The notes beneath the pieces were generated by a model, which saw only the letters and a list, made by a program, of their open reading frames with translations, did no database searches and was not told where the DNA came from. Positions 5,088 through 46,985 of a DNA stretch of 53,327 nt are shown in pieces. Origin of the DNA: Perkinsus olseni (Eukaryota); assembly GCA_013115125.1 (NCBI GenBank), contig JABANN010000203.1, positions 1 to 53,327 on the forward strand. The letters run 5' to 3'. The translations under genes were made by a program, and so were the position numbers. Within the stretch, counting starts at the first letter, position 1; each line of letters begins with the position of its first letter.

Positions 5088-7892
5088 TTATCCGGTCCAC
5101 TCCTCGTCATCGCTGTTATGCTTCTTTCTGCCATACGAAGGACGACCGCTGCTCTGCGGCCGTGTGTTCATCGTGCTCTCGGCTTCCGACTCAGAATAGC
5201 TGCTGCTCGCCTCGCTCTCAAATTCGCTTTCTGATGCCTGGTCCTCTGACAGAGACAGACTCAACAACATAATCCTGCCAGGAACCCCCTACCAATCCTT
5301 CGGCTCCTCCTAGCGGCTTCTCTGGGTGGTTGATGCCGGACAGGTAGTTGCTGATGCTGGTAGTGAGGTTCACTCCGCAAGGCCACCCCTGCCTGTTGCT
5401 GGAACATCGCCATTGCCGTGGAGGGCATCATGTGCTGTAGTTGGGCCACTAAGGCAGGCCTGCTAGGTGCTGCCGTTGGGGCGGGCGCAGGAGGCTGTGG
5501 TTGGAGGACCTACACGACACACTGTTAACTATACACTACTAGCGTCCTGCTTGAGCGCTCAGAGCCAACGTCCCTGGAATGTCGCGAAAATGGACCCGAG
5601 CCACTATGACCAGTTCAGCAGGTAATGGCCGTCGATAATGGAAACGGAACGTAGCAGCTATCTTCCATCATCTTCATTACTACCCTGGTGAGTATAGCAC
5701 CCGTGAGTTCTCTCGGTATCCAGCTCATAGACTCACGGCACTCCTCAGCAAATCTCATCCACGCCGCCGATGATGCCGCTACCCACTGGAGGACTATAAA
5801 CCACGATCATTATCACCTCATGACCAAAGGACACAACGACCCCACCTGCCGCCTGGCTGAACTTCCCTGTGGCATCATTACACGCAACTATGAGCGCTTG
5901 TGGTGGTCTCCTGAACGAGGACTGTTCCTTCAGTCTCGACCAATTCTCGGTAGCTCACCCTTCAGCTTGGGGTTGCTTGTCGTTCGGGCCACGGGCAAAG
6001 GCCGGATGAGCAATGACCGCTCCAGGGGATCCACTGGCATCGCCAAAAACCAAGCACGAGAGATTCCGTTCAAGATCCTGAGCAAGGCCACAACTGTCGC
6101 GTCGTCATCATTGAGACTTGACTCACCGTCAGAGGCGCCCATGTGGCAGCATAGCAGAAAGTCTGGCAAAAAGTCTTAGCGTTGGGTATGAGGATGAATC
6201 TCTCGTCGACGTTTGAGTCAGCTGGGCCCAGTAGGACGGACATCGGCCCAGCCTAAGGGGAGGAGCAACTTCAGCAGGCTATGAGGAAGGCGATAGGCCC
6301 ACCTTATCACGGCTGAGGTATCGCGGACAGAAGGGGTTTCCATCTCCTTGTGTCAAATACTCGGAGAACCTCTCGGCCAACTCTTTCTCCCACTGAAGAA
6401 GGATTCGGCTGCGTGACGAGACGAGACGAGACGGCGGATTTCAGCCAGGTTCGATTCCCGCACCCTGCACTTTTATCACCTTCATTCCCTGCGACTTTAA
6501 GTAAGCCAGTACATCATTGAGGGCTGCCTGAGTTATCGCGTCGAGCCCACCAGCAGCCACCGACGTTCCCGCGCTAGGCTGAGTGCTTCGCTCCGCCTCC
6601 TTTTCCTCCGCCGGTTTTTGCTTTTCTTCTGCATCTGCCATCTCCACATCACCTCCCTCCTCTTTCCCCTCTCCTCCTTCCCCCTCCTCCTCTTTTGTCT
6701 TCGTTCCCATCTCATCCTTGCTTTCCTCACCACCGCCCTCTTGCTCCGCAGTCCTCCCTTCGGCAGCCTTCTCAGACGTCACCTTCTCAGAGGCCAGACT
6801 GAAACCAACACACCTAGCCAGTCAGCGACAGGACGGTGGCAACGCCCCTCTATAACGGGTTGTGCCTCGGTCTTCCATCCAAAACGATGAGTTACCTGAG
6901 CAGGCAGGCCGCCACCTCTCCCCGTTTGCTGAAGAAGTCCGCTAGAAGCCATGTACCAACCAATCGCTGGCCGAGGTTCAAAAGCGGAATGCTCAGGCCA
7001 CGCTTCGTGAGGACTGTCAGAGCCATGAATCTGGAGGTAGAAACGACACTTCTGGGATTCGAACCCACGACCATTCGATTCTCTAAACTGAAGACTGCAG
7101 CAGGGCCCGACCTGTGCAATTGATCACAGTCCAGAGTCTCCGCAGTAGCCGTCGAAACGTCAGCACAGCCAGATATCTTCTGTGCGATAGCCGAGGCCCC
7201 GCTCGAAGGCGCTGGCCGCCGCGCTGTGCCCTGCTCCCGCTGCTGCTGCTGGAGAGTGGCAGCAGTCTGCTGATGTTGCTGACCAGTAACCATCCTGAGG
7301 GGCAAGAGGGATTCCTTCTGCCGTACCAAACTCGAGCATTCCGTATTCCGCGGAGGCCGGAGTTTGCCACTCACCGTTGTTGTTGCAACTGCCGTAACTG
7401 TGCCAGCCTCAGGGCTTCGGTGCTCCGATCAACCTGACGATGGAGAATACTTGAAACTGATGATGATGCAGATCGGGTATCACCTGTGCCGGTGCTTGCT
7501 CTACGTGAGTTACGGTGTAGGCCTCTTCCGGCACCTTCGCGCCGGCCTTGGCTGCTACCTGTCCAAGACCAATGGTGACACGGTGGACAATCCCTACCCT
7601 CACCTTCAAAACATCTGAACAGTATTCCTCGAACTTCTCTCTATCCCTGACGAAGAGGCCGCTGGAGAAGTCAGACCAGGCCGACAGGAACTGCGCGGCA
7701 AAGGCCGTATTGAGCGGAGGCAGGGGAGGCCGAGGCTGGGACGGTTGGGCCGATCCTGACGGGAGCTCGGCTGCTACCAATAGTATCCTCTCTTCGACGC
7801 CCTCACTCACCGGTCTGTGTAGAGCCATTCACCGGCGCTGAGGGAGCGGTCGGTGACGATGACGACCCCGCGGACGCAGGGGTGGGATTCAT
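5088..7892 (-). CDS. Hypothetical multi-exon protein with low-complexity Q-rich and E/K-rich segments
   Basis: ATG at 7892 (MNPTPASAG...). Chain of ORF fragments (7409-7828, 6892-7374, 6441-6782, 5930-6169, 5261-5449, 5088-5270) separated by GT..AG introns. No recognised domain; could be more than one gene. Confidence 0.5.
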
Positions 7893-8138
7893 AGGGCTGA
7901 ACACTAAGAGGCCCCCAGCACGCGTCGAGGCGCAGTTATAACGCAAGTCCGCAGTGTAATCCTACTGAGCCTACTCGTCTAACGTGGGTAAATGATGGTA
8001 ATCAGCAAGGCAATTTGCTGTCATCAACGACTCCCGTACGCTGGGCCAAGAACCACAATAATGGCGAGGCTGGCCGGCAGCAGCAGCAACAACAGCACTA
8101 CTACGAAGACACGCAATGATAATAAGAGTAAGAAGTAG

Positions 8139-8506
8139 TGTACCGTTCTAGTGTCCGATCCGGTCGCTCCCGTCTTGGCCTCTTTCTGGTTACCACTTTC
8201 AACACTAGGCACAGTCATGGCAATAGAGATAATACAATAATGAATCGGAGGGCGGAGGTCAGATACAGCGTAATCGATCCATAAGACAGCTAAGGGGACA
8301 ATAGTTGTGACACAGGTAGATCAGTCACGAGAAAAACAGCCACCGAGATTTGAACCTTAGCTTCTTGCTTAAGAACGTGCCGCTCTACCACTTGGGCTGA
8401 TCATCCACGAGATGCTCCGATATTTGCTGCCGTAGACCGTAAATAGAAGGCACAGATAATGGCTGCACGTATGTTGCACAACAGGGCGACCGATGAAACC
8501 GTTACA
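8139..8506 (-). repeat. 3' LTR (368 bp)
   Basis: Matches 14158-14526 except for 2 substitutions and a 1-nt A-run indel (by eye). Confidence 0.97.
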
Positions 8507-8520
8507 CGCCCCCCCAGGGA
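8507..8520 (-). other. Polypurine tract (G7) of the LTR element
   Basis: Minus strand reads TCCCTGGGGGGGCG immediately before the 3' LTR start TGTAAC. Confidence 0.75.
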
Positions 8521-8539
8521 GCCCAAAGCTTCTTTGGCT

Positions 8540-11500
8540 TCAACATACAACCCCAGTTTGTTGGAGCCAAGTCTTTACGTCTCGAGGTAACCGTCCACCC
8601 TTAGTAGGTTTAAAAACCTTCTTTCCAACTACTGCCATAATGCTAATGGAGTGTTGAGTTCTCTTTAAATCTGACCTCTTCGGTTTCCGAAAGACCCCAT
8701 TAGGGGCTTCATCTAAGCCTTGCACTCGTATATTTCCATCATCCTCAAATTTGAGGAACTGTGAAATATAAACACGTGTTATCGGCTCAGGGTTATTCGG
8801 CTCTTGTATTACTTCCGAATGAATCAACCAGTACTTATTAGTTGCAGAGGTTATTTCCTCTCCCCATGGCGCCTTTCCTTTAGCAGCATACGCCAACTGG
8901 TCAACTGCCGGCTTAATGGCATCTTCATACTGTTCTCGATCTGTTGCATCAATGAACGGTAAGAGGTGACTTAAAGGCACCGGGTCTTTCCGACCTTCTA
9001 AATAGTATATAAGGTGATTTGAATCACTTATACGTTGGACTCTATACGGTCCCCTCACTTGTCTTTTGTTATCAACCAATCGAGACAGTTTAACTTGGTC
9101 TCCTACTTTAAAACGATGGCGTGGGATCACATCAACTATGCTCTTCATCTCTGCTATCATTGCTTTTTCAGCCTGTGCAAATTGGGAGAAGGCATAGAGA
9201 TCGACCAATTGCTCATTAACAGCGGCCCACATCGTATCAGATGGCGTGTCTGTTCTCATCAAGGCTCCATCTATTCTACTCACGGAGCCAATAGTGAGCT
9301 CCATCGGCGTATATGGGACTGTCTCCGATATCATCGAGGTGTTATGAGCTAGAACAGCTACTTGCGCTGACAGCCACCAAGGTACTGTAGCCTGTCCTGT
9401 ATCAGTTCGTGCTGAACCTATCCGAATTGCTGTTTTCAGGTCTCGAATCACCCTTTCTACTAGCCCTTGTGACTGAACATGCCTAGGGAGCCCGTACTTG
9501 GCCTCAATATCCCAGTACCGCAAGAAGGGCTCGAGATATTCAGCATTCTTATGACCTCCAGCATTATCTAATTGGATATATGCAGGAGGACCATACAGGG
9601 AAATCCATGTTGTCAAAGCATATACCAAATACCTCGCGCTAGCGGAGGGCGTTGGTTAAGCAAGTAGCATGTGGGTTCCCTCACATATAATGACGCAAAG
9701 GTAAGCTGGTGCATCCTTCGCTAATATAGGATGAATATCATCTTGTTTTTCAGGTAGAATGGGACCGGCCCAGTCAATTTGAAGTGTTTCAAATCGTGAC
9801 TGCCATCGACGGCGAACCACAGGTTGGTGATTCTGCACGTCATGAAATTTATTCAATTGACATATTTGGCAGGTCCTTATATGGTGATTAGTGTCAAGTA
9901 CTTGGTTAGGCCACCAGAAGCCTGGTGTATCGTCTCGCATCCATTCCACTGCACGGCGAGTGCCACGATGAGAAGCAAGAGGACTATCATGCGCTCTATA
10001 TAGAGCCCACTTTTGTGACCTTAGTGTAGGTAGTACTACTCTATATTCACTTGTCTGCTTCTTCTCCTGGGGGTCATTCACCCATAACAGGCCATCTTCA
10101 ATTCTATAATACGGCCCATTGGGTGAACCTAGAGCAAGCGCTTGCGCCTTTATTGTTGGTTTATCTATTCCATCATTTCTCAGGGCTACCAACAGTTCAA
10201 GATACGTTACACCTTGGATCACCGAGTGGCCTCCTGTGAATCCTTCATCAGCAAGTGCCTCCCGAACGTGGTCAAGGACGTCATCTTTGGTAAGGCTTCC
10301 TATACCTGCTAATTGCTTGTATGGATCCTCCTCAGGATCTTGCTTTTGAGCAACATTGACATCAAGGGTGACCGGTGCCTCTTCTGGTGGCAATTCTATG
10401 AAGTCTACTGGCGGCGACGCAACGCCTAAGACACCTCTATGAGATGAACCTTTATCCTCTATTATCGTGCATTCGCCACTGTCTATCATAGCAAGAACAA
10501 TTGCTCCCTTTTTGGTCTTCTTGCCATTATACAGCCTCCGTCGAGGTTTCCGGGTCTCTAGCCCGCCAGAAAGTTTTTGCAAAGGGAGTGCAGATGAGCT
10601 TGCTCGACTAAGCTCATCAGCAAACGTGTTGTGTAAGCCTTTTATATGCTTGGTTCTTATATCGATGTCGTACTCTTCTTTAACTAGATCCTTGACATCA
10701 TGGATGGCGTTAATAAGACGCTCTAGGGCTACTCGATCGTAGGATCTACTTACTCCTAGCATTGATTTGCTCATCGACCAACTTACTGCGGTAGAATTAT
10801 CACAATATATAGTGACTTCTTTTATCTTTCCATGTAAGAAGATCTTCAACCAATCCGCAATTTTACAGATCGTTCTTTGGAGCGTGATAGCCTCACGACG
10901 GTTGATGTGATACTTTCTTGATTTCTCATCCCATTCACCGCAGTGTGCTTCTAGCATATTGCTATCACCGATCAGTTTTCTCCTCTGGCCTGGTCTTTTG
11001 AGTAGAGCTAGCATAGAGTAGTAGCCCCCATCCAGTCTCGGATGCGTCACAGTAGCCTATAATTTTATCGGCGTCATCTATCGGTGTGTGATGACAACTT
11101 CCATAGCCGTCTTTAAAGGCGAGCTCAAGCATTTGATTAAGATTCATTTGAGTGTTATGGTCAATAACCCATTCATGATTCCATGCCTCTGGGGTATTTC
11201 CCCCTTCACTACTGCCTCCCCAACGACGGACTCTATCCGCTATGAACCTCGTCATAGGATGTAAGCGCAGAGGATCATGCAGCATCCCGGCTGCTCTGAA
11301 CAGCCTGCGCCGAGTCACTTGGTTAGCAATTTTTATCTCTTCAGGTGATGGAGCCACGCATTCAAGTCGAAGGCCGCCGTCTTCACCCCTAGCTCGAGAC
11401 CAAATACAACCCAAATGTCTATAGCCTGAGTTGTCAGGTATATCAGTCTTCCCTTCTAATGGTCTTAACCAATCTTGTTTAGTTGAGGGGAATTCTGATC

Positions 11501-14237
11501 CGACTATCGGTGCGATTTGAGTGAGAATGCTTGCTAGTTTAACTACCAATTCTTCATCTCCCCAGATCATGACATCGTCATAGTATACGACACAGAAGAG
11601 GTTTGGTACCAAGTTGGTGAACTCCCTCGTGCTCTTGCACATGACAGGTCGTCCTAGAAGGCCGGTGAAGGCAGCATTCAGAATCATCAGAACAAGTCCC
11701 GACAGTGCCGCCGGCCCGAAAACGAGTCCAAACACAACTCGGTTACTACGATACCTATGGCTATCCGTTACTATATGAACATACTTCTTATCACCAAGCC
11801 TCAGCCTATAAAAGGCTTTACTCAGATCAAGGAAAGCCAAGGTATATGAAGAGTCCCACCGGCCTCTCACAAGCGCCGTTGCTTCGAATATGGTATACCC
11901 GTCATATGAAGCTTGGGGGAGGTGCTTATTTATCTCTCTACAGTCCGTACATGGTCGGCACTTAGTGGTTTTAAAGATTGATTGGGCCACTGGGAAAGTG
12001 CACGCAGTCCCTATGGTCAATTTATCCGGCTTAGTGTAGCCATCTATTTCTTCCCACCAATGGTGGCTTTTGTAGTCTTCTATCTCGTTTCTAAATTGCT
12101 GTTGTTGACCTTCCGTTAACTTCTGTAGTAGAGGTACTGAGTAGTCGTATACTGTCAGTTTTGCTGGCTGGCTCGGGCGTAGCTTTTGACTATCCGTCCT
12201 GCCCTGGGTCCAGTGAACCTCGTATACCAGTTTCTGGTTTGGATGGTCCTTAACGTCATCTCGTTGTATCTTCCGTATCCGCCCTATGTACTCTGGAGCA
12301 CCTGGTAAGGGCACATCGTTATCCATACCCGACATGAGAGCAATCTCTGCGGCTCGTTTCATGCTACTCAAGGATCGGTGGATACCCAGCTGGTCGCTGG
12401 GGGCTCTTTGGTCTACCGCACTCCCTGGTATGGTCAACTGTATATGCAACTTGGGGAAACTTGGTCTACCTATCAGTACATTGATGGACGCTGGCAAATG
12501 GGCGCTCGAGCACACCAAACACTGTATCTGCGCTGAATAGCTCCTGAGGGTTAGGTAGACCTCACAACTATCCACAAGCTCCACTTCACCGTTAAGCCCC
12601 TTCACTGTCAATGATTGAGATAGGGGCGAGGTTCGAAGAGACACCTCTTCCACTATCTGATCTGAGATTAAGTTCACAGATGACATACTGTCAATGCCCG
12701 CTCTAACTGGAGTATATTTATGATCCCCAACACTCTGTGAGATCACTCCAGTAACTATTGAAAGAGCATTGCTTATTCGTTTGGGATTTATCCCGACCCC
12801 ACAGTTATTCACTGACTCAACACTTATAGAGTAAGCAGATGAAGCACTAGTGATGTGAATACTCTTAACAGTAGAATCATCATCTTTACTATTCTTGTTA
12901 CTATTACGTGTACTCGTAGTCTTCGGGCAATTCTTGGCCAAGTGGCCCTTTTGCCCACACTTGAAGCACAAGCCATTTCTTTGACGTTCAGTTAACTCTG
13001 CTGAAGGCAGTCTGAACGAGTCATTAGTTCGAGTAGTAGTAGTTCTTGTAGACACCTGGCTCGAAGGCACACTATTGCTAAACTTCTGCCTTTTGGGCGG
13101 CCGCCCATTATCAGTATCATAGACCTTCGGGCCACGCTTCCTCCCATTGTCTTCTGGGGTGATCAGTCCCAAGTAGCCGTCAATGGACTGCTCACCATTA
13201 TTAAGTGCTTGAGTTTGGAGTCGTGATAACAATTCCTGTGGGGTCTTACAGTCAGCTTTCACCGTGGCAATCAACGCACCATAACCACTATCTGACATCT
13301 TAGCCCGAGGACACTGCTGTAGGATGAACTCGTAAAGGGCAGCCCGGAAGCTCCAATCAATCTGGAGCCCTTTGGTACCGGAGAGCTTCCCAGCTAAGTA
13401 CACTTCCTCCTCCACGATTCTAGAGAAATCCAGTCTCCCAGCTTTGCGATACAGGCTTGTCCATCGTCTCAAAAGAACGATAGGATGGCTAGCTTCTTCA
13501 GAACACTCAAGCTTGTCCATCATCGCCTCAGCTTTCACGCAGAGCTCCGCACACTTCGTCGTCCATCTACTATATGCTTCCTTGACTTTCGCCAGAAACT
13601 CAGTAGTATCGACAACATCAGACGACGGCTCTGCAATCTCTTTCCAGGCAAACAACTCAGCCGCTTGATTCAGCGTCTGTTCACCATTAGGGCCAGTTGT
13701 CAGAATATGTTGAGTACAGAGATCTCTCAACTCTCCTACAACGGTCCTAGGGAGAAACAGACTATAACTGAGGAGACGCAGAGGTGAAGTCGTTCCTTGA
13801 ACTCCATTCAATGCGAAGTCCAATTGCCTACGGAAACGACTCCATCTCCATGCCCCTTTGCCATGGAAACGTATACCCTCGAGACCCTCTTCTCTGGGTG
13901 CATCGGGGTGCTGGTATATGCCCCAGCTTGTAGCAAGAGCTTTCAGTGAGATGCCAATGGACCGGCCATCAGCACCTATGAAATTCATCTGTGACATAGC
14001 TGTACAACGAGGTTTGGCGCCTATAGCGTATTCAACCAGTTGCAAGCATGTTAGTTTATCGGAATACCATGACCAACTAGTTTCAGATGTCGAAAGTGCC
14101 GCAGAACTTAGGGCTTTCTTCAAAAGATCAGAAGGACCTTTCCCGGACGGTGCACCATGTACCGTTCTAGTGTCCGATCCGGTCGCTCCCGTCTTGGCCT
14201 CTTTCTGGTTACCACTTTCAACACTAGGCACAGTCAT
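8540..14237 (-). pseudogene. gag-pol polyprotein (CCHC knuckle, aspartic protease, RT, RNase H, integrase) with one frameshift and one in-frame stop
   Basis: Knuckle CFKCGQKGHLAKNC; protease IDSMS; RT DLSKAF and YYDD; TRRRLF...HDPL; RNase H CDASETGWG...HINRRE...YCDN; integrase H-H-C-C (AHDSPLASH...CQIC), DWAGP, LDN, QSQGLVER and GPY. Frameshift near 10976-10979; TAA at 9656-9658. Confidence 0.92.
14140..14157 (-). other. Primer-binding site, probably tRNA-Gly
   Basis: TGGTGCACCGTCCGGGAA directly after the 5' LTR. Its complement TTCCCGGACGGTGCACCA resembles eukaryotic tRNA-Gly(GCC) 3' ends (TTCCCGG...TGCA-CCA). Confidence 0.8.
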
Positions 14238-14526
14238 GGCAATAGAGATAATACAATAATGAATCGGAGGGCGGAGGTCAGATACAGCGTAATCGATCCA
14301 TAAGACAGCTAAGGGGACAATAGTTGTGACACAGGTAGATCAGTCACGAGAAAAAACAGCCACCGAGATTTGAACCTTGGCTTCTTGCTTAAGAACGTGC
14401 CGCTCTACCACTTGAGCTGATCATCCACGAGATGCTCCGATATTTGCTGCCGTAGACCGTAAATAGAAGGCACAGATAATGGCTGCACGTATGTTGCACA
14501 ACAGGGCGACCGATGAAACCGTTACA
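14158..14526 (-). repeat. 5' LTR (369 bp), contains the gag ATG (14237)
   Basis: Direct repeat of 8139-8506. Confidence 0.97.
14351..14426 (-). promoter_or_regulatory. Degenerate tRNA-like Pol III cassette (A box, B box, T6) inside the LTR; second copy at 8332-8406
   Basis: GGATGATCA-GCTC-AAGTGGTA-GAGC-G-GCACG-TTCTTAA-GCAAGAAGC-CAAGGTTCAAATCTCGG-TGGCTG-TTTTTT. Confidence 0.65.
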
Positions 14527-15279
14527 GTAGTACGACACAGACAAGCGAGAAGAGCAGATAGTAGTGCTCGTGCTGCTGATGGCTACCAACGCTGTTGATG
14601 ATATCATGGATCAACGACCCGTGGGGCTACTCCGATAGAGTCTGTGACCATCGGTACACCTATTTAAGGACGGCCTGCAGTAGCCAACACGTACAGCTGA
14701 ACGACCGGGCATCAGCAGAAGAGATAGACCACAAGATGATGATGGAGACGACGTAGACGAGAATTATTATATTAGGAAGATCTCTACTGGTGAAACTAGA
14801 CAAGAATACAACCTCATTACGTTAAGTCAACGAGAGGCTAAGCGAATCCACCTGGCAAGTCGAAGGAACAGCAGGCCAGAGAATGATCGGCTCAGCCACG
14901 GTGTGACTAATAACAATCAAGCAGGTCGTGAGGAACACTTAGGTTAGTGACACGACGTATGCTATAATTCGTCTAAGGGAAGAGAGGAGGAACAACAGGA
15001 AGAATATGGTGTCGCCTGACATGGTGTGTTTGCGTGAATCGTGTCGTCGAGGGACACAAGTTTTACCGGCAATAATGATAACAACAACAGCAGGGCAGTA
15101 GTGGCGAGGTGATGGAAGAGCCCGGAGTGAAGCTCCGGTGGACCGATGAAGGCAAACGAGGAATAATGACTTCAGGCCAGATTGGCCCGTTGGTGACAGT
15201 CCTCGCAGACAATCTGATAGAGCTGATGATGATGATGCCCTCCTAGACGGAAGGTAGACTCGGAATCCGTTAGGGGACG

Positions 15280-17709
15280 TTAGTACTCCCACTGGGCAGG
15301 AGCAGCATGCTTCTCTTCCTCCTCGTCCCTGTCGGATCGAGGACCCCTTGGAGTAACAGCAAGCTCAGCAACACTGACAGAAGAAGTCCGCTGCCTCTGT
15401 TCTCGGTCCTCGACTTCCTTCATACGCTGAAAGTTGTCATCCATCACCTTCACCCTCTCATGGATGCCGTTCAACAGCCCATCGAGCGTGTTCCACAATG
15501 GGCTCACGACGAAGCTTATGAACCCAACCTGTAACTTGGCAAGCTCCAATGTGTCGTCTGGACGATGGGCCATGAAGGGCGCGAAGGGCAGGCCTTCCAT
15601 CCTCTCAGCCTCGGCCTGGCGGTAGTACTCAGAGACCACACGATAGCTCCAGTTGTAGTACTCATCATAGGGCATGAGTGGGTTAGAGATATCAGCAGCA
15701 TGCACGATGCCTTGAAGCAGCGTAGGTCGGCTCTCGGCCAAGGCCCCGTCGATCCACTCCCCTGCTTGCCCGTGCCTCTCCTCGTTGGAGCCGTTGTAGT
15801 CCAGTAGTAGTTCCTGCAGCTTGATGGTTATGTCGAAGTGGACCTTCATGTCCGTAGCCAGAATGACCGCGATAACGGTCTGACGGAAGAGCTCGTAGTC
15901 GCTGGGCTCGCCAGGCTCCTCAGCTGCAGGCCAGGACGAAGTGAAGTCAACAGCACCACCAAGAAGAAGTTCGAACGTCCTCGCAGCATGCATGTTCTCC
16001 AGCACAGCCGTGTCGTTGTATCGCACAGCCAGATGCCTTCTCCCCTTGATGAAGTAGTCGTTGTTGAGGCCAGGGTGATTAACGTCATGGCACAGTGCTC
16101 CGATTAGGAGACTGAACTCCTCCAGAGGAGTGCAAATTACGTCACGCGCCCCAGCGGGTCCCGGTCGGGCAGAGCAACCCGCTTTGTACAGAACGTAGCC
16201 CACGCAGCTCATCACTTGATAGGCGTGGTAGAAGTTGTGGTACGGATTATCAGCATGATAATCAGTGGCGATCAGGTTAATAAACCCCCACAGCTTAGAG
16301 GCCTCCACCAGCTTCCCTTCGCCCACGAAGCCCCATCGGTCGAATACACTGTAGGCCCGACGAACCATCTCAGAATGGTCTATATTGAACAACTTTACGT
16401 CCCAGCTGAGCAGATCCGGCAGCTGCAGGCTCTCCATCACAGGCAGCTCCAGTATCTTAGCCGTGAACTTCGCCTCATCGTACGCTACCGAGTCGCTCGC
16501 CCTTCTCGAGGTGTCGCTGACGGAGCCCCTGCCGGTGCTGGTGCTGTCCCTAGCGCCACCCATGCCATCCCGCATCCACTGCTGGACGAAGGCATAGACA
16601 CTAGGATTCTCATTCTGCAGCTGCCTGGACACTCGTCGGAGTATGATACTCCGAATGGCGGTACTGGTAAGATCATGGCTCCAGCGATGGGACACATGCC
16701 TGGCCACGGTCAACTGCGGTGGAGGCGGGACACTATCGCACTCCTCCTCCTCATCAGCACGATGCACGACGCCGACTAGCCCGACGCCCCTTCGTCCCAC
16801 GCTTGAGCTCAGGAAAGTAGATGTAGGCATCGTCGTCATCCTCATCGCTATCATTGGCTGTGTCGTGGTACTGCGGGCGCCTCTCAGTGAGGTTCTCCCG
16901 GATGTAGTTACACATGAACTCGGCAGGGTTGCAAGGCGTGTGAATACCCAGCTCAATGAGCATCATACAGGGTGTTCCAATTCGATATGCAAATCACTAA
17001 AATCAGTCTAATTCATGCCATATTGCGTGTTTGAAGCTGAAACTTGAGTATGATATGCCCTAATATATTTACGGCAAAGGGTATTAATATCAGCTAATCG
17101 ATCGACCGTTTCGCTTACCCGAGGGCGCGCGAAAAAAATTCTCACCGGGTAGCCGTGCCAATTCGTTATGCAACACAGTTCTTGATCGGTCTAATGGCTC
17201 GTGGAACCTTCCTTCAAACACAGAGTTTCAGCTTCAAACACGCAATATGGCATGAATTAGACTGATTTTAGTGATTTGCATATCGAATTGGAACACCCTG
17301 TAGTGAGGAAGTTCTCCAAGTCAAACCGTCGGAAGTAGGCCAGGACGTCCTTAGAGCAGACCTTGTGACCATTAGGGCTCTCCTCTGCCGCGGCAGCAGC
17401 ACAGGCCGCTACGACCTCGGCAGTTGACGGAGAGGTAGGAGTACCGGCAGCATCGCTCGGAGAACCATGGTGATGATGATGGCGATGGGTGACAGAACTC
17501 GGTGAAGTGACGACAGACTCAGGCCTGGCTACCTGGATGAAAGGGGAGATGGTCGGCGCATCGTCCGAAGCATCATCATCCTCGCAGTCGTCTAAGGTGG
17601 AAGCCGTCGCAGCACAAGCCAGCGCTGACTTGGTGACCACGTCGTCTTCTGTTTTGTTCTTATCGTTCTTGTCATTCTCCTGCGTGGTCGTGGTGGTAGT
17701 AAGGCTCAT
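15280..17709 (-). CDS. Class I cyclic-nucleotide phosphodiesterase with an N-terminal RIIa/Dpy-30-like docking motif; this copy is interrupted by a MITE
   Basis: YHNFYHA, HDVNHPGLNN, LENMHA, ATDM, ADISNP, EYYRQ and QVGFI motifs. The upstream exon rejoins in frame when the MITE is removed. Confidence 0.85.
16968..17300. mobile_element. Non-autonomous Tc1/mariner-type MITE, 333 bp, 77-bp TIRs, TA TSD
   Basis: TIRs at 16968-17044 and 17224-17300 begin CAGGGTGTTCCAATTCG. TA at 16966-16967 and 17301-17302. No transposase. Confidence 0.95.
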
Positions 17710-17743: not shown

Positions 17744-20700
17744 TTACAACCAACTGAACGAAGACGACAGGAGAATCACTCTGGACCTCCACCCGAACCA
17801 CAGCCCGGCTGGCATCAAGAAACTGCGCAAGTTATAATAAATATTGACGATGTTGATGCTGTTAGACAAATATAGCGGTCCCCGACTATTGCTGCTGTTG
17901 TTGGCCCGACACCGCTCGTTCCGGACTGGAAGGGGAGCTGAACGAGAGAACCACGTGTGGCGGTGTACCGACCCGTAAGCCCGTACTACCTCAGTTGTTG
18001 TTGTTGCCCTTTGGCATCGGCCAAAGGCTGGGCAGGTAGCTGCGAGGCATTCGTATAGGAGCCGTAATAGTAGTACCCCGTCTGTGGTGACGGCCATTGC
18101 TGCTGCTGTTGTTGGTGAGGTTGAACCGTGGGCACCGAGTAAGCGCCAGACTGCTGAGCACTAGGGCTCTGCTGAGGCATCAGCGGTGGGGCACCGTACG
18201 GCAGTGGCGCACCGGTAGGGTACCGGTGTTGGTCGATGGCCCCCTGAGGTCCATAGTATTGGGGCTGTGCCGGTACTGCACTCAACGGGGCAGCCGCCGG
18301 AACAGGCTGTCCTTGATGGACCACAGGGGAAGCGGTGATGGGGATTGACGAAGAAGCGGATAGCTGGCTGGCTGAAGTCTGGGGACCCACAGGGGAGCCA
18401 CGGATGATGGACTGTGGACTACTAGCCTGCTGCAGTGAGGCCACCGATGCCGCCGCCGGCGCCGCCTGCACTACAGGGACTGGGTGGTACGGTTGCTGGA
18501 GATCAGCCTGGGCACCAGGGATCATGCTTGCTGAGCTCATGCCCGCATGTAGAGATCCCACCGGGGATGAGGCGTTGGCGGCCGGCGACGAGGCTCGTTG
18601 TGGCTGAGCCACACCTAACTCATCCCGCCCAGCTAGACCTTGCACAGCCATAGGCGACTGCTGCTGCTGCTGCTGTTGTGGCGGTGCTCCTTGCACGGGC
18701 ATGGGCGACTGCTGCTGCTGCTGTAGTGGCGGTGCTCCTTGCACAGGCATGGGCGACTGCTGCTGCTGCTGCTGTAGTGGCGGTGCCCCTTGTACGGCCA
18801 TAGGCGACTGCTGCTGCTGCTGCTGCTGTTGTGGCGGTGCCCCTTGCACAGGCATGGGCGACTGCTGCTGCTGCTGTAGTGGCGGTGCCCCTTGTACGGC
18901 CATAGGCGACTGCTGCTGCTGCTGTTGTGGCGGTGCCCCTTGCACAGCCATAGGCGACTGCTGCTGCTGTAGTGGCGGTGCCCCTTGTACAGCCATAGGC
19001 GACTGCTGCTGCAGTAGTGGCGGTGCTCCTTGCACAGGCATGGGCGGCTGTTGTTGTTGTTTATAATAATAGGCTTGCTGCTCTCCAGGAGTCCAAGACT
19101 GTTGTTGTTGTTGTTGTCCACTATGAGCCCCATACTGTGTCCCCAGAGCTGGAGGGATATACCCCTGTGGCAGACCATTGGTATCGCCGCCTGCTGTAGC
19201 CAGTGCATCGAACGCCTCGAACGGGTTGCTATCACTTTTGCCACCCATGCCACTCCCTGCCCCCATCTGCCCTTCATTACCACCCATGCCGTCCCCGGCA
19301 CCTCCTTGGCCAACAGCTGCACCAGCACCACCGCCGGCCGCTGCTGACCCCCAGACATCAGGGCTATCGAAAGATATCATGTCCGGTGCGACGGGCTGGG
19401 GCGCACTCGTTGAGGGCTCGTCAGGGAAGGTCGGCATTTGTGTATTAAAAAATGCGTTCTCAGCAGCATCCACTTGTTGCTTATAATCGTCCCGGTGACC
19501 TATCCTAGCCGCCAAATCTGTGGGTGGCGGGATCTGTGGGTTCTCGTCTTCGCTCTGACAGAAGATTGTTCGAAGTTGACCCATTTTGCATCTTGCCAGC
19601 CTCAACCTACAGATTCGTCTTCACTGGAGGAATCATCATCAACTCCAGCCTGAGCTCGAAGCAGCGCTACTTGCTTCTGCATCTCCCGGTACCTATGAGG
19701 CCCCTCGATCCCACAGTATCGCATAATTTGGGGAAATTTTGGTATGAGACTTACTCATCATCATTCGTCTCGTTAGCTTTTCTCTTCTCCGCCATTCGTC
19801 TCTCATAGTACCTGCATAACCCAGTGACCACCAACAAGGGAATCTTAGGTCGACTACTGTCGAAGACGGATAGCCTGCTCCCGCTTTCCCCTGACCGTGT
19901 AAGCGTAGAACGGCACCGTGTCGATGAGCAGGTCCCATCGATCAGGATACCGAGATGGGACTATCTTGAAGTAATGGCCCTGGAACTTGAAGGCGTAACT
20001 GCACAGCGGCCGTTTCCAAAGCCTAATGGTCCGTCCACGCGAGGTCTACCTGAACTTGCCAGACTTCTGAACTTGCATGGTTTGTTCATAGCCATTGAGG
20101 ACGACTCTGTATTTGTCACTGCGCCACGAAACGAACAGATTTACCAGGTAACTCTAAGGATAGCGACTACTGTCTGTACTGAACCAGACCGAGTGGCCCG
20201 TACTGTACTACCTGGCCGCCTATCTCGAACCGCCAAGTGTACCTGCACGGTGCGGTATGAGGGAGGACTCCCAAAGGGCCAGGGCTCTACTTGGTTTTGG
20301 AACTGGATATGACCGACCCGACGTCCTCAGTCTCGTAAGATACCGCCGTTATCTCATCATCGGCGGGATTGGCGGTGGGCGATGACATTGCTGGCCCTCA
20401 AACAGGAACAAAATTGGACCTATCTGAGTTTGGCAAGGACGATGGAAAGATACCCCAACACCTCCGTTGGGTCCGATGAGTTGAAAGCACTACAACACCA
20501 CAATCGTTTAATGGAAACGAGCATCTGTTACACGGCGCGCGGTCAATCGTCCTGCAAGGCTGTCACAGGCAGCCGCCGGTACTACCCCGAACTGGCTTCG
20601 TATTTTACTCCGACCTCTCCTTCAACGGCTACCGGTTTATCGTCGCAGTGGACGCCAACGCCTTACGAACTCCTCTCATAGAAGCGGCCTGTCATTCACC
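17744..20700 (-). CDS. Q/P-rich multi-exon protein; N-terminal beta-rich domain weakly FAIM-like; start and end uncertain
   Basis: 539-aa Q/P-rich ORF at 17986-19605. Upstream exons read WRSDKYRVVLNG...FKFQGHYFKIV...WDLLIDTVPF. Confidence 0.5.
18640..19050 (-). repeat. Coding tandem repeat, about 9 x [SPM(A/P)VQGAPP(L)-Qn]
   Basis: Visible in ORF 17986-19605; CAG tract length varies between units. Confidence 0.92.
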
Positions 20701-28360: not shown

Positions 28361-30436
28361 ATGTGCACTGACACTCCTGCTGCGACCGCCTCGGTCTATG
28401 ACCTCTTCGTCAACGACTCAACGTCTTGCGATGTCTGCGAGAAGCTCATAACCTACCTCAGAGCCGTTTCTGGCAAGGTGAGTTGCGGCCGCCCGGAATC
28501 GAACCCGGGTCTTTCAAAGCCTCTCTGTTTGCTCCTACCCATATGATACTGTTCACTACTCCTCACCTTTTCATGAGACGGCATCCCTCCCTGGTACTTG
28601 GCTGTCATTCTTTTCTGAATCAGGGCGCTCGTCCCAGTGGCACGATCATCCGGGCCACGACCAAGCCGGGTAACTCGGCCCTTTCCGCTGCTTTCGACCA
28701 GCGACTACCCGTCTATGCCAGCCAGAAGAGGGAGGAATCTTTCGAGGGCGCCCTTAAGGTGGGGGGGACAGCTGAATTGTGTGTTGGTGTTCTGAATGCC
28801 GTGTGGTTTGTCAGGCACTGAAGGCCATCGCCGAGGACTCCGGTTTTGGTTCCCTTCTCCTTCCCGAGGGCGGTGAGGCTCTTAAGTGGGTCGAGTGGTG
28901 TCTTAATGAGAGCGAGGGAGCGTTCAAGCTGAGCAAGCAAGGCGTGGAGAAGCTCAACAAGACGCTCGAGGACAGAGTGGGTCTCTCGTCGTTTCCGCAC
29001 GGCTGGTTGACGGAGTTCGCGTCACGTAGGTATTCTTGCTTGGCGGCTCGAACATAACCCTAGCAGACTTCGTAGTGGCCCACGCTGCTGAGCGATGGGC
29101 CTCCAAGGCTTCTCAGAAGGAGCTTGCTCAGTACTGCAACATCACTAGGTAACGAAAGCTCGATGCTGGTCGGTGAATGTCGAATCTTCCCTTTAGGTGG
29201 TATCACCATATCAGCACTCTCCCCGGCAGCCCTTATCCTGAGAGCGTTATCGATCTCCATGCGGTGTCGCGGGCTTACACGAACCTTCATAAGGCTGATA
29301 CTGCGGCGCCTGGTGGCAAGGGCAAGGGCGGCAAGGGCTCCCCTAAGAAGGGTGAGCCATCGGGTGGTGACGAGAGGACCCTTGCGGATGTGATCTGGTC
29401 TTAGGCGAGGCAGGTGATGCTGATGCTGCGGCCAAGAAGAAGGCTGAGAGGAAGGCTAAGAACAAGGAGAAGCAGGCTAAGGCACAGAAGGAGACTCGAC
29501 CAGTCGAGGATGTCAGTCGGCTCAATATGATTGTTGGTAAGGTTTGATAGTTGACGGTGGAGAACTTCTGAAGGCATATGTGGTGGCTTGCCTCAGGCAA
29601 GATCAATAAGGTTTGGGAGCATCCCGATGCGGAGAAGCTGTGGTGTGAGGAGATTGACTGTGGCGAGGCTTCTGGTGAGTACCGATGGGAGAATATGGAG
29701 GGATATTTTAGCTCTAATAATTTCGCGGAGGAGCGGCTTTGCCTGGCATTCGCTAGGGTTTGCTACATCTTGGCGTGTCAATAAGTGCCGTGCGCCATCA
29801 GTGCCGGGGCTTCTACGACCTTTGATAGTCGCGGGCGTGTCTCGCTGTCACTTCTGCTCCTGCTTGTTGTCGTCAGGTCCCCGTCAGATCGCATCAGGCC
29901 TCCGCGATTTCTACAAGGAGGCCTCTGATCTCGAGGGCCGCAAGGTTGTCATCCTTGCTAACCTCAAGCCCCGTCCCCTTCGTGGATTCGTCTCCCACGG
30001 TATGGTCATGTGCGCCTCTACCGGCGACCACAGCCAAGTTGAGGTCTTGGACGTGCCCAAGGACGCCAAGCCTGGTACGCTCGCATCAGTATGATATCTC
30101 TTGGCAATCGTGTCTTAGGTGACCGTATCACGATCCCTGGCTTCGACGGTGAGCCTGATGAGGTCCTCCATCCCAAGCATAACCCCTTCGATGCTGTCAA
30201 GGGTAGGATGATCTTGGAATCTTGAGCTCTCTTGCGGTATCTCCACGCTTATGTTTAGGTGATTTGAAGACTGTGAAGAAGGAGGATGGTGTCATTATGG
30301 CGACCTACAAGGTAAGATGAGCTACTGTTCGCGTTCGGACCAGCCAAGGGGCATCTTATTTCAGGGCAAGGCGTTCACTCTCCCTAGCGGTGAGATCGTT
30401 ACCGCCCCTGACCTTGCCGACTGCGAGATCTCTTAA
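28361..30436 (+). CDS. Arc1p/AIMP1-like aminoacyl-tRNA synthetase cofactor with a C-terminal EMAPII tRNA-binding domain
   Basis: HPDAEKLWCEEIDCGE...PRQIASGL...ANLKPRPLRGFVSHGMVMCA; K-rich linker; multi-exon. Confidence 0.85.
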
Positions 30437-46908: not shown

Positions 46909-46985
46909 GTATGATTTGTTCTAGTGGTAGAGCGCCGGACCATATTACCGAAGGTCGTGGGTTCGATCCACGAGAGGTCTATTTT
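46909..46985 (+). pseudogene. Degenerate tRNA-like element (A box, B box, T4)
   Basis: GTTC-TAGTGGTA-GAGC D-arm, AGGTCGTGGGTTCGATCCAC T-arm and TTTT; acceptor stem does not pair and anticodon arm is irregular. Confidence 0.65.

Follow-up and report, generated by a model that had tools for sequence, protein, structure and literature searches.

A tRNA-like unit flanked by a short direct repeat in both LTRs of a Ty3/gypsy-like retrotransposon from Perkinsus olseni

Introduction

Long terminal repeats (LTRs) that hold pieces of small Pol III genes show retroelements gaining host RNA and, sometimes, new promoters. The locus described here raises the question of what such a piece does in both LTRs of a large coding retrotransposon: whether it is a promoter of the element, a small gene of its own, or a relic that is carried along. 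The locus lies in a window of 53,327 bp from Perkinsus olseni (contig JABANN010000203.1), by which we mean the whole stretch of DNA analysed. A preliminary description of this window had noted tRNA-type Pol III boxes in the LTRs and had suggested that the element captured them as a promoter. In the available text of Kojima 2024 (PMC10886601), "not a few LTRs" in Repbase are said to hold part of a tRNA, and it is argued in general that autonomous LTR elements must use Pol II.

The host element

The host is a 6,388-bp Ty3/gypsy-like LTR retrotransposon on the minus strand of the window, with an interior of 5,651 nt (~5.65 kb; Table 1). It has the TG..CA ends, target-site duplication (TSD), primer-binding site (PBS), polypurine tract (PPT) and gag(CCHC)-RT-IN order of a Ty3/gypsy-type LTR retrotransposon. 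The Pfam domains zf-CCHC, RVT_1 and Integrase_H2C2 were found on the minus strand in gypsy order, and since gag-pol is on the minus strand, this is the sense strand of the element. RVT_1 scored 24.4 bits, under the Pfam cut-off of 29.6, so the reverse transcriptase is a divergent one.

Three proteins among 7,997 scored candidates were related to gag-pol at E<=1e-5, and they came from Perkinsus olseni (P0003 and P0004) and P. chesapeaki (P0005); no relative was confirmed in the viral contigs or metagenome contigs searched. The closest one, P0003, is a continuous gag-pol of 1,493 aa which is colinear with the three open reading frames (ORFs) of the window (identities 900/1007, 373/443 and 35/37). 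Relative to P0003, the gag-pol of the window is interrupted twice, near 10965-11050 and near 9628-9656, and these interruptions could be frame or stop breaks, or else assembly errors (indels).

The rest of the window contains intron-poor eukaryotic genes, including a transketolase, an Alg9-like transferase, a phosphodiesterase and an MMPL-type protein. A 337-bp MITE-like unit was found between two genes at 16966-17302, with terminal inverted repeats of 79 nt that are 100% complementary and 179 nt between them. Nine tandem copies with a period of ~48 nt (42-54) occupy 18610-19119, inside a 532-aa ORF (17986-19584) without Pfam match.

Table 1. Features of the element and of the tRNA-like unit in its LTRs (positions in the window)
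Feature	Position	Strand	Remarks
5' LTR	14158..14526	-	369 nt, TGT...ACA ends; direct repeat with 8139-8506; PBS adjoins
3' LTR	8139..8506	-	368 nt; purine-rich tract before 3' LTR; 3 sites differ from 5' LTR
Primer-binding site TGGTGCACCGTCCGGGA	14141..14157	-	directly after 5' LTR; read directly
Polypurine tract CTGGGGGGGCG	8507..8517	-	adjoins 3' LTR
Target-site duplication, 4 bp, GTAG on +	14527..14530; other copy 8135-8138	.	read in sequence
gag-pol, three ORF pieces 10965-14237, 9656-11050, 8540-9628	8540..13997	-	start 13997 set by P0003 homology
Insert, 5' LTR (very likely tRNA-derived)	14352..14418	-	67 nt, LTR positions 109-175; tRNA position 9 to oligo-T
Insert, 3' LTR	8333..8398	-	66 nt; GCCC for GCTC, CTAAGG for CCAAGG, T run one base shorter
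Box A CAGCTCAAGTGG	14419..14408	-	motif read
Perfect D arm GCTC-AAGTGGTA-GAGC	14417..14402	-	motif read
7-nt loop TTCTTAA at anticodon-loop position	14395..14389	-	U33/R37-type, in register; sequence read
Box B GGTTCAAATCT	14366..14376	-	includes GGTTCAAATC at 14376..14367
T6	14356..14351	-	T5 at 8336..8332 in other LTR
Direct repeat DR1 TCTCGTGGATGATC	14419..14432	-	directly 5' of insert; holds supposed 5' acceptor strand (GGATGAT)
Direct repeat DR2 TCTCGTGACTGATC	14338..14351	-	directly 3' of insert; first T = last T of T6
LTR difference, position 112	14415 vs 8395	-	T/C; breaks D stem in one LTR
LTR difference, position 148	14379 vs 8359	-	C/T
LTR difference, position 171	T run	-	T6/T5

Copies and relatives of the LTR

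In run X1, which may be the source of the window, the 369-nt LTR was one contig with a depth of 137.6, against 82-88 in the flanks, and its loose ends led only to the other junctions of this element, 8109-8138 and 8507-8536. We see one element and no further LTR insertions in X1, in contigs that drop rare variants and with some records filtered. In runs X7 and X9, the contig consisted of the left flank (8109-8138), one LTR identical to the 5' LTR and the right flank (14527-14660). This solo-LTR allele against the full element of X1 means that the insertion site is polymorphic between samples. The contigs of all three runs have no variant letters in the LTR and carry no conservation signal. The raw RNA run X21 contributed 0 reads and has no weight either way.

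A 10-kb contig of X1 matched the leader of the element (14039-14109) with 10/71 letters different, then diverged towards the PBS and LTR. This contig shows that the genome also has a second relative, which is diverged and whose LTR does not reach 85% similarity.

A word-index protein search with the 45-aa translation of LTR positions 1-135 found no candidate. Against a representative protein library the LTR peptide had one match, P0006, an unnamed predicted tandem-repeat protein of 822 aa (repeat of 62 aa). The match covered query residues 6-32 (window 14431-14511, LTR 16-96) in 12 weak stretches with 51% identity. We rejected it as a relative: it is probably repeat-inflated, and it stops before the direct repeat DR1 and is irrelevant to the unit.

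The tRNA-like unit

The unit is located in the 5' third of both LTRs (presumed U3). Our reading agrees with the preliminary description on the D arm, the 7-nt loop, box B at tRNA-like spacing and the T6/T5 runs, each at the same place; it also agrees that the unit is in sense orientation, gag-pol being on the minus strand too. Box A and box B are 43 nt apart from start to start. The T6 is the single T run of at least 6 nt on the sense strand of the element, and it is placed exactly at the expected 3' end of a tRNA.

A type 2 Pol III promoter is composed of a box A like TRGCNNAGTGG and a box B like GGTTCGANTCC, about 30-60 nt apart, with oligo-T downstream. The unit has this composition: each box carries 1 mismatch to this consensus, the spacing is the 43 nt given above, and T6 or T5 follows downstream.

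The stems were read by ourselves. The anticodon stem pairs at 0/5, with the non-pairing 5-mers GCACG and GCAAG on both sides of the loop; the acceptor stem pairs at 2/7, counting one G-U; and the T stem pairs at 3/5, or at 4/5 if a 1-nt loop bulge is allowed. The earlier remark that neither the acceptor nor the anticodon stem pairs is therefore correct as a reading of the letters, and the acceptor part of it is taken up again with the insert boundaries.

The two LTRs have exactly three differences and all of them are within 14351-14426, at LTR positions 112, 148 and 171, as had been noted before. They all spare the box consensus positions and the T run stays at least 5 nt long, which has no statistical weight at n=3. 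The clustering in the unit is weakly informative, one of the three being the homopolymer change at the element's single T6; for the remaining two, (76/369)^2 gives ~0.04 by our own arithmetic and with boundaries set post hoc.

Chance, tRNA identity and fold

In a loose test, box A and box B were each allowed at most 1 mismatch at a spacing of 28-55. This gave an expectation of 0.157 sites per window against 2 observed, and 2/300 simulations reached 2. At tRNA spacing (40-47) the expectation decreased to 0.031 per window, with 14 sites in 48 Mb of Markov sequence. When a perfect D stem was also required, 0 sites were left in the 48 Mb, and none of the 14 carried the T5+ run either. The motif combination is not chance. 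The unit is very likely tRNA-derived, and on this point the preliminary description holds: boxes A and B and the oligo-T stand in the right order and spacing, with 0 such sites in the 48 Mb.

The covariance models, which the preliminary description had proposed as a check, gave no support. At gathering thresholds Rfam had no tRNA match, and none appeared at E<=10 either, whether the query was the 501-nt stretch, the 106-nt stretch or the whole window. ARAGORN made 0 calls at default settings, and it picked the unit only at 80% thresholds, as one among 40 such calls in the window. The 88-nt stretch folded at -19.4 kcal/mol, against -20.4 +/- 3.1 kcal/mol for shuffles (z = +0.33), and 124/200 shuffles were as good.

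We therefore rejected a functional tRNA gene, as neither Rfam nor ARAGORN at default detected it and the anticodon stem pairs at 0/5 and the acceptor stem at 2/7. The unit is not a tRNA. It is also no structured RNA, with no better fold than shuffles.

A metagenome scan with the D-arm and T-arm motifs returned 3 loci, all of them bacterial-type tRNA-Thr(GGT). They match by construction and were set aside as uninformative on the donor.

Further tRNA-like fragments with a box B were found in the window at 6448-6457(+), 7056-7065(-), 28496-28505(-) and 46918-46975(+). The motif GGTTCRANTC has 5 matches in the window vs 0.8 expected, and 0/100 shuffles reach 5. Several of these fragments look 5'-incomplete, two are then followed by a T4 run, and none passes ARAGORN default or Rfam. 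For P. marinus, five types of tRNA gene with together over 500 copies are reported, and Dada transposons target them (PMC3706591).

Insert boundaries and flanking direct repeat

The unit is bordered by two copies of a 14-nt sequence, DR1 and DR2, which match at 12/14 and are the sole direct pair of at least 12/14 in the LTR. Any 12/14 pair at a spacing of 40-120 was found in 16/300 shuffled LTRs (5%), and by our own estimate it is far less common for such a pair to adjoin the unit at its two ends as well. Between the two copies are 67 nt (14418..14352), running from tRNA position 9 into the T run. The tRNA-like part reads as a secondary, probably 5'-truncated, insertion into the LTR. The flanking repeat could alternatively be a repeated U3 regulatory motif, as 5% of shuffled LTRs hold some 12/14 pair.

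These boundaries change the meaning of the unpaired acceptor stem. The 5' acceptor strand does not pair because GGATGAT is part of the flanking repeat, i.e. LTR DNA and not decayed tRNA. The preliminary description had concluded that the promoter boxes were kept while the tRNA fold was lost. This stands in so far as the boxes are intact and the anticodon stem pairs at 0/5, and it falls for the acceptor stem, where the apparent loss is an artefact of an insert that starts at position 9. For annotation in general, an "unpaired acceptor stem" may be mere flanking DNA.

The insert has no CCA, so that a mature tRNA was not the template. It also has no A tail, so that a classic LINE-type insertion is not a clean fit.

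The decay within the insert is uneven: the anticodon stem pairs at 0/5 although the D arm, 16 nt long, and the T loop show no damage. From the 2/14 divergence of the repeat, about one broken pair would be expected, and uniform decay from a normal tRNA is unlikely. Either selection may act on the boxes, or the source was perhaps already aberrant or chimeric.

Proposed origin

We consider that the unit is probably a captured, truncated copy of a Pol III transcript or tRNA gene which is passively carried in the LTRs. The anatomy of the unit, its flanking repeat, the exclusion of chance and of a tRNA, and the terminator argument given below stand as observed; the capture route and the present passivity we infer.

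The source would be a tRNA gene or its primary transcript, copied as 67 nt from tRNA position 9 through the oligo-T terminator. The copy would have entered an ancestral LTR, within the 5' third that is presumed to be U3 and in sense orientation, and the capture would have left 14 nt of the LTR duplicated on either side. Two routes may be proposed. In the first, the reverse transcriptase would switch onto a co-packaged pre-tRNA in minus-strand synthesis and return 14 nt behind; such template switching requires the sense orientation of the insert, as is observed. Retroviral particles are reported to package pre-tRNAs, according to the available parts of two papers (PMC4378196, PMC4931115). In the second, a Pol III transcript would be inserted into a genomic LTR by target priming and later be copied to both ends. 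The 14-nt duplication and the 5' truncation are typical of target-primed insertion, and the missing A tail counts against it. Both routes may fit, and the present sequence does not separate them. Neither of them accounts for an anticodon stem of 0/5 beside a perfect D arm.

Read-through from the primer was rejected as an origin, as it would give an antisense tRNA adjoining the PBS and not a sense sequence inside the LTR. In addition, the PBS matches a different tRNA 3' end: the 3' end to which it is complementary, read directly, is unlike that of the embedded unit.

After capture, the unit would now be passive in what appears to be a single, twice-broken Ty3/gypsy-like copy in a Perkinsus-like genome. 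We read it as passive and decaying because gag-pol is split in three, the LTR is seen at one element in run X1, and one D stem is broken. The unit still has the consensus for TFIIIC and Pol III binding and, if transcribed, would give only an ~80-nt RNA ending at T6. If it is a passive relic, "empty" LTRs with a single TCTCGTGnnTGATC would be expected, or substitutions spread evenly over the 67 nt.

Alternative readings

A second reading is that selection keeps the unit because it works on its own, as a Pol III unit or a TFIIIC site, and provides an ~80-nt RNA or a chromatin boundary that shields the element or its neighbours; this we regard as rather unlikely. Boxes A and B with at most 1 mismatch each at tRNA spacing and then T6 would suit such a unit, and so would the intact boxes vs an anticodon stem of 0/5, the three LTR differences that avoid the box consensus positions, and the identical LTR in runs X1, X7 and X9. 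The Pol III small RNAs made from foamy-virus LTRs, as given in the accessible parts of three reports (PMC7104284, PMC7693620, PMC3993851), are a working precedent. However, the LTR was seen as a single element in X1 and the element is broken. The RNA would be without stable fold (z = +0.33), and so has the potential for neither a tRNA-like shape nor a miRNA-like hairpin. Box A has C in place of T at position 8, and one LTR is minus a D-stem pair. In its most definite form, namely an independent tRNA-type Pol III mini-gene in each LTR of an autonomous perkinsozoan element, kept for function as a source of an ~80-nt RNA or as a TFIIIC-bound travelling boundary, the claim appears unlikely to us; a stand-alone Pol III or TFIIIC role taken overall would be unlikely to about the same degree or slightly less so.

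The unit might also be the head of a tRNA-derived SINE that was inserted into the LTR, the origin route published for TRIMp3, which we think distinctly unlikely here. The 14-nt flanking duplication with 5' truncation would fit target-primed insertion, and the window has other tRNA-like fragments with the excess of box-B matches given above (5 vs 0.8 expected). SINE heads also keep the boxes and lose the cloverleaf, as described in the available text of PMC10886601. However, there is no body or tail, and the T run comes directly after the acceptor-like 3' strand, which places the unit outside SINE2. Apart from a D-arm match of 12 nt at 46923-46934, the window showed no other copy, and no SINE family for this organism was found in the literature searched. 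To our knowledge, none has been named for Perkinsus olseni.

It is very improbable that the likeness to tRNA is accidental, or that the boxes belong to an ordinary U3 enhancer repeat: U3 regions commonly hold short direct repeats, the loose test alone expects 0.157 sites per window and covariance-model support was not found, but the 48 Mb gave 0 matches once tRNA spacing, a perfect D stem and a T5+ run were required, U33 and R37 are in register, and the T6 is unique in the element.

The last reading, that the unit is a Helenus- or Cassandra-type Pol III promoter which transcribes the element itself, is close to refuted and seems hardly credible to us. This is also the outcome for the proposal of the preliminary description that a captured promoter drives transcription of the element; insulation and the seeding of B boxes, which it also put forward, are conjectures. 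The unit is in both LTRs on the sense strand, and the use of such promoters is described for TRIMs whose LTRs are tRNA-like or 5S-like (PMC10886601, available text). However, in the 5' LTR the unit is followed immediately by the T6, and the sense strand of the interior has another six T4+ runs, including one T5. Transcription by Pol III from a start 5' of box A would reach the T6 after ~80 nt. Because of the T6 after the unit and the six interior T4+ runs, Pol III cannot make the genomic RNA of this element. Interior T4+ runs are somewhat few, 6 vs 11.2 +/- 3.2 expected, which as a sign of Pol III constraint is a depletion of ~1.6 sd and not significant. The element is also 6,388 bp long vs 311-1,263 bp in Helenus, whose autonomous partners must use Pol II according to the same available text (PMC10886601).

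Comparison with known systems

Passive capture of a truncated tRNA copy can be compared with several published cases. Helenus is a closer precedent than Cassandra, the one brought forward in the preliminary description. According to the available text of Kojima 2024 (PMC10886601), Helenus elements are TRIMs with a tRNA-like sequence in the LTR, in which boxes A and B are conserved and the tRNA is non-functional; they are grouped with Cassandra and Ajax as TRIMp3 and are proposed to have arisen by insertion into an LTR. Like Helenus, the present element has a tRNA-like stretch in both LTRs with recognisable box A (RGCY...YGG) and box B (GGTTC) and a non-functional tRNA, and it shares the PBS, the PPT, a TSD of 4-5 bp and the proposed origin by insertion into the LTR. 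Unlike Helenus, which is non-autonomous, 311-1,263 bp long and multi-copy, it is a 6.4-kb gag-pol element with one copy seen. In Helenus the unit is thought to be its own Pol III promoter, whereas here a terminator comes right after the unit and makes this role impossible. The hosts given for Helenus in the available text (PMC10886601) are fungi, animals and one plant, and not alveolates.

Cassandra is alike in that both LTRs carry a segment derived from a small Pol III gene together with its promoter and terminator. It differs in that it carries 5S and not tRNA, is non-autonomous, is conserved across plants and is reported, in the available text of PMC10886601, as transcribed from the 5S promoter.

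In Culex quinquefasciatus, cqgypsy_1 (PMC3286476, accessible part) is likewise an autonomous Ty3/gypsy element with a captured tRNA flanked by an LTR duplication, which is 26 nt there and 14 nt here. It has tandem full tRNA copies with CCA at the boundary of 5' LTR and PBS, in contrast to the single, 5'-truncated copy with oligo-T, without CCA and inside both LTRs that was found here.

If the unit were a working one, it would resemble the foamy-virus LTR miRNA cassettes (PMC3993851, PMC7693620, PMC7104284; available parts), as a stand-alone Pol III unit in the LTR of an autonomous retroelement, apart from the Pol II genomic transcript. Those cassettes give hairpin precursors and their expression was demonstrated, unlike the present unit, which has no stable fold.

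Some features of the insert are also those of a more ordinary class of sequence. tRNA pseudogenes and tailless retro-copies of Pol III transcripts are truncated, tRNA-like, flanked by a duplication and non-functional as tRNA. The present unit differs from them in being inside an LTR, and hence it is duplicated by retrotransposition.

Significance

In the open-access full text searched, we found no description of a tRNA-like unit in a Perkinsus LTR element. As it stands, the finding is a modest and mostly descriptive addition, since LTRs with tRNA-like parts are already published (Helenus, Kojima 2024). What is new is, first, an autonomous element from Perkinsus-like alveolates, a lineage without such a case in the literature searched. 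Second, the capture footprint, composed of the 14-nt duplication, the start at tRNA position 9 and the oligo-T end, suggests that the insert was copied from a primary Pol III transcript or from the gene.

If the unit were a working mini-gene, it would be the retrotransposon counterpart of the foamy-virus LTR Pol III cassettes and a mobile source of extra TFIIIC sites. If it binds TFIIIC or is transcribed, this gene-dense parasite genome would have a Pol III or boundary element that is mobile.
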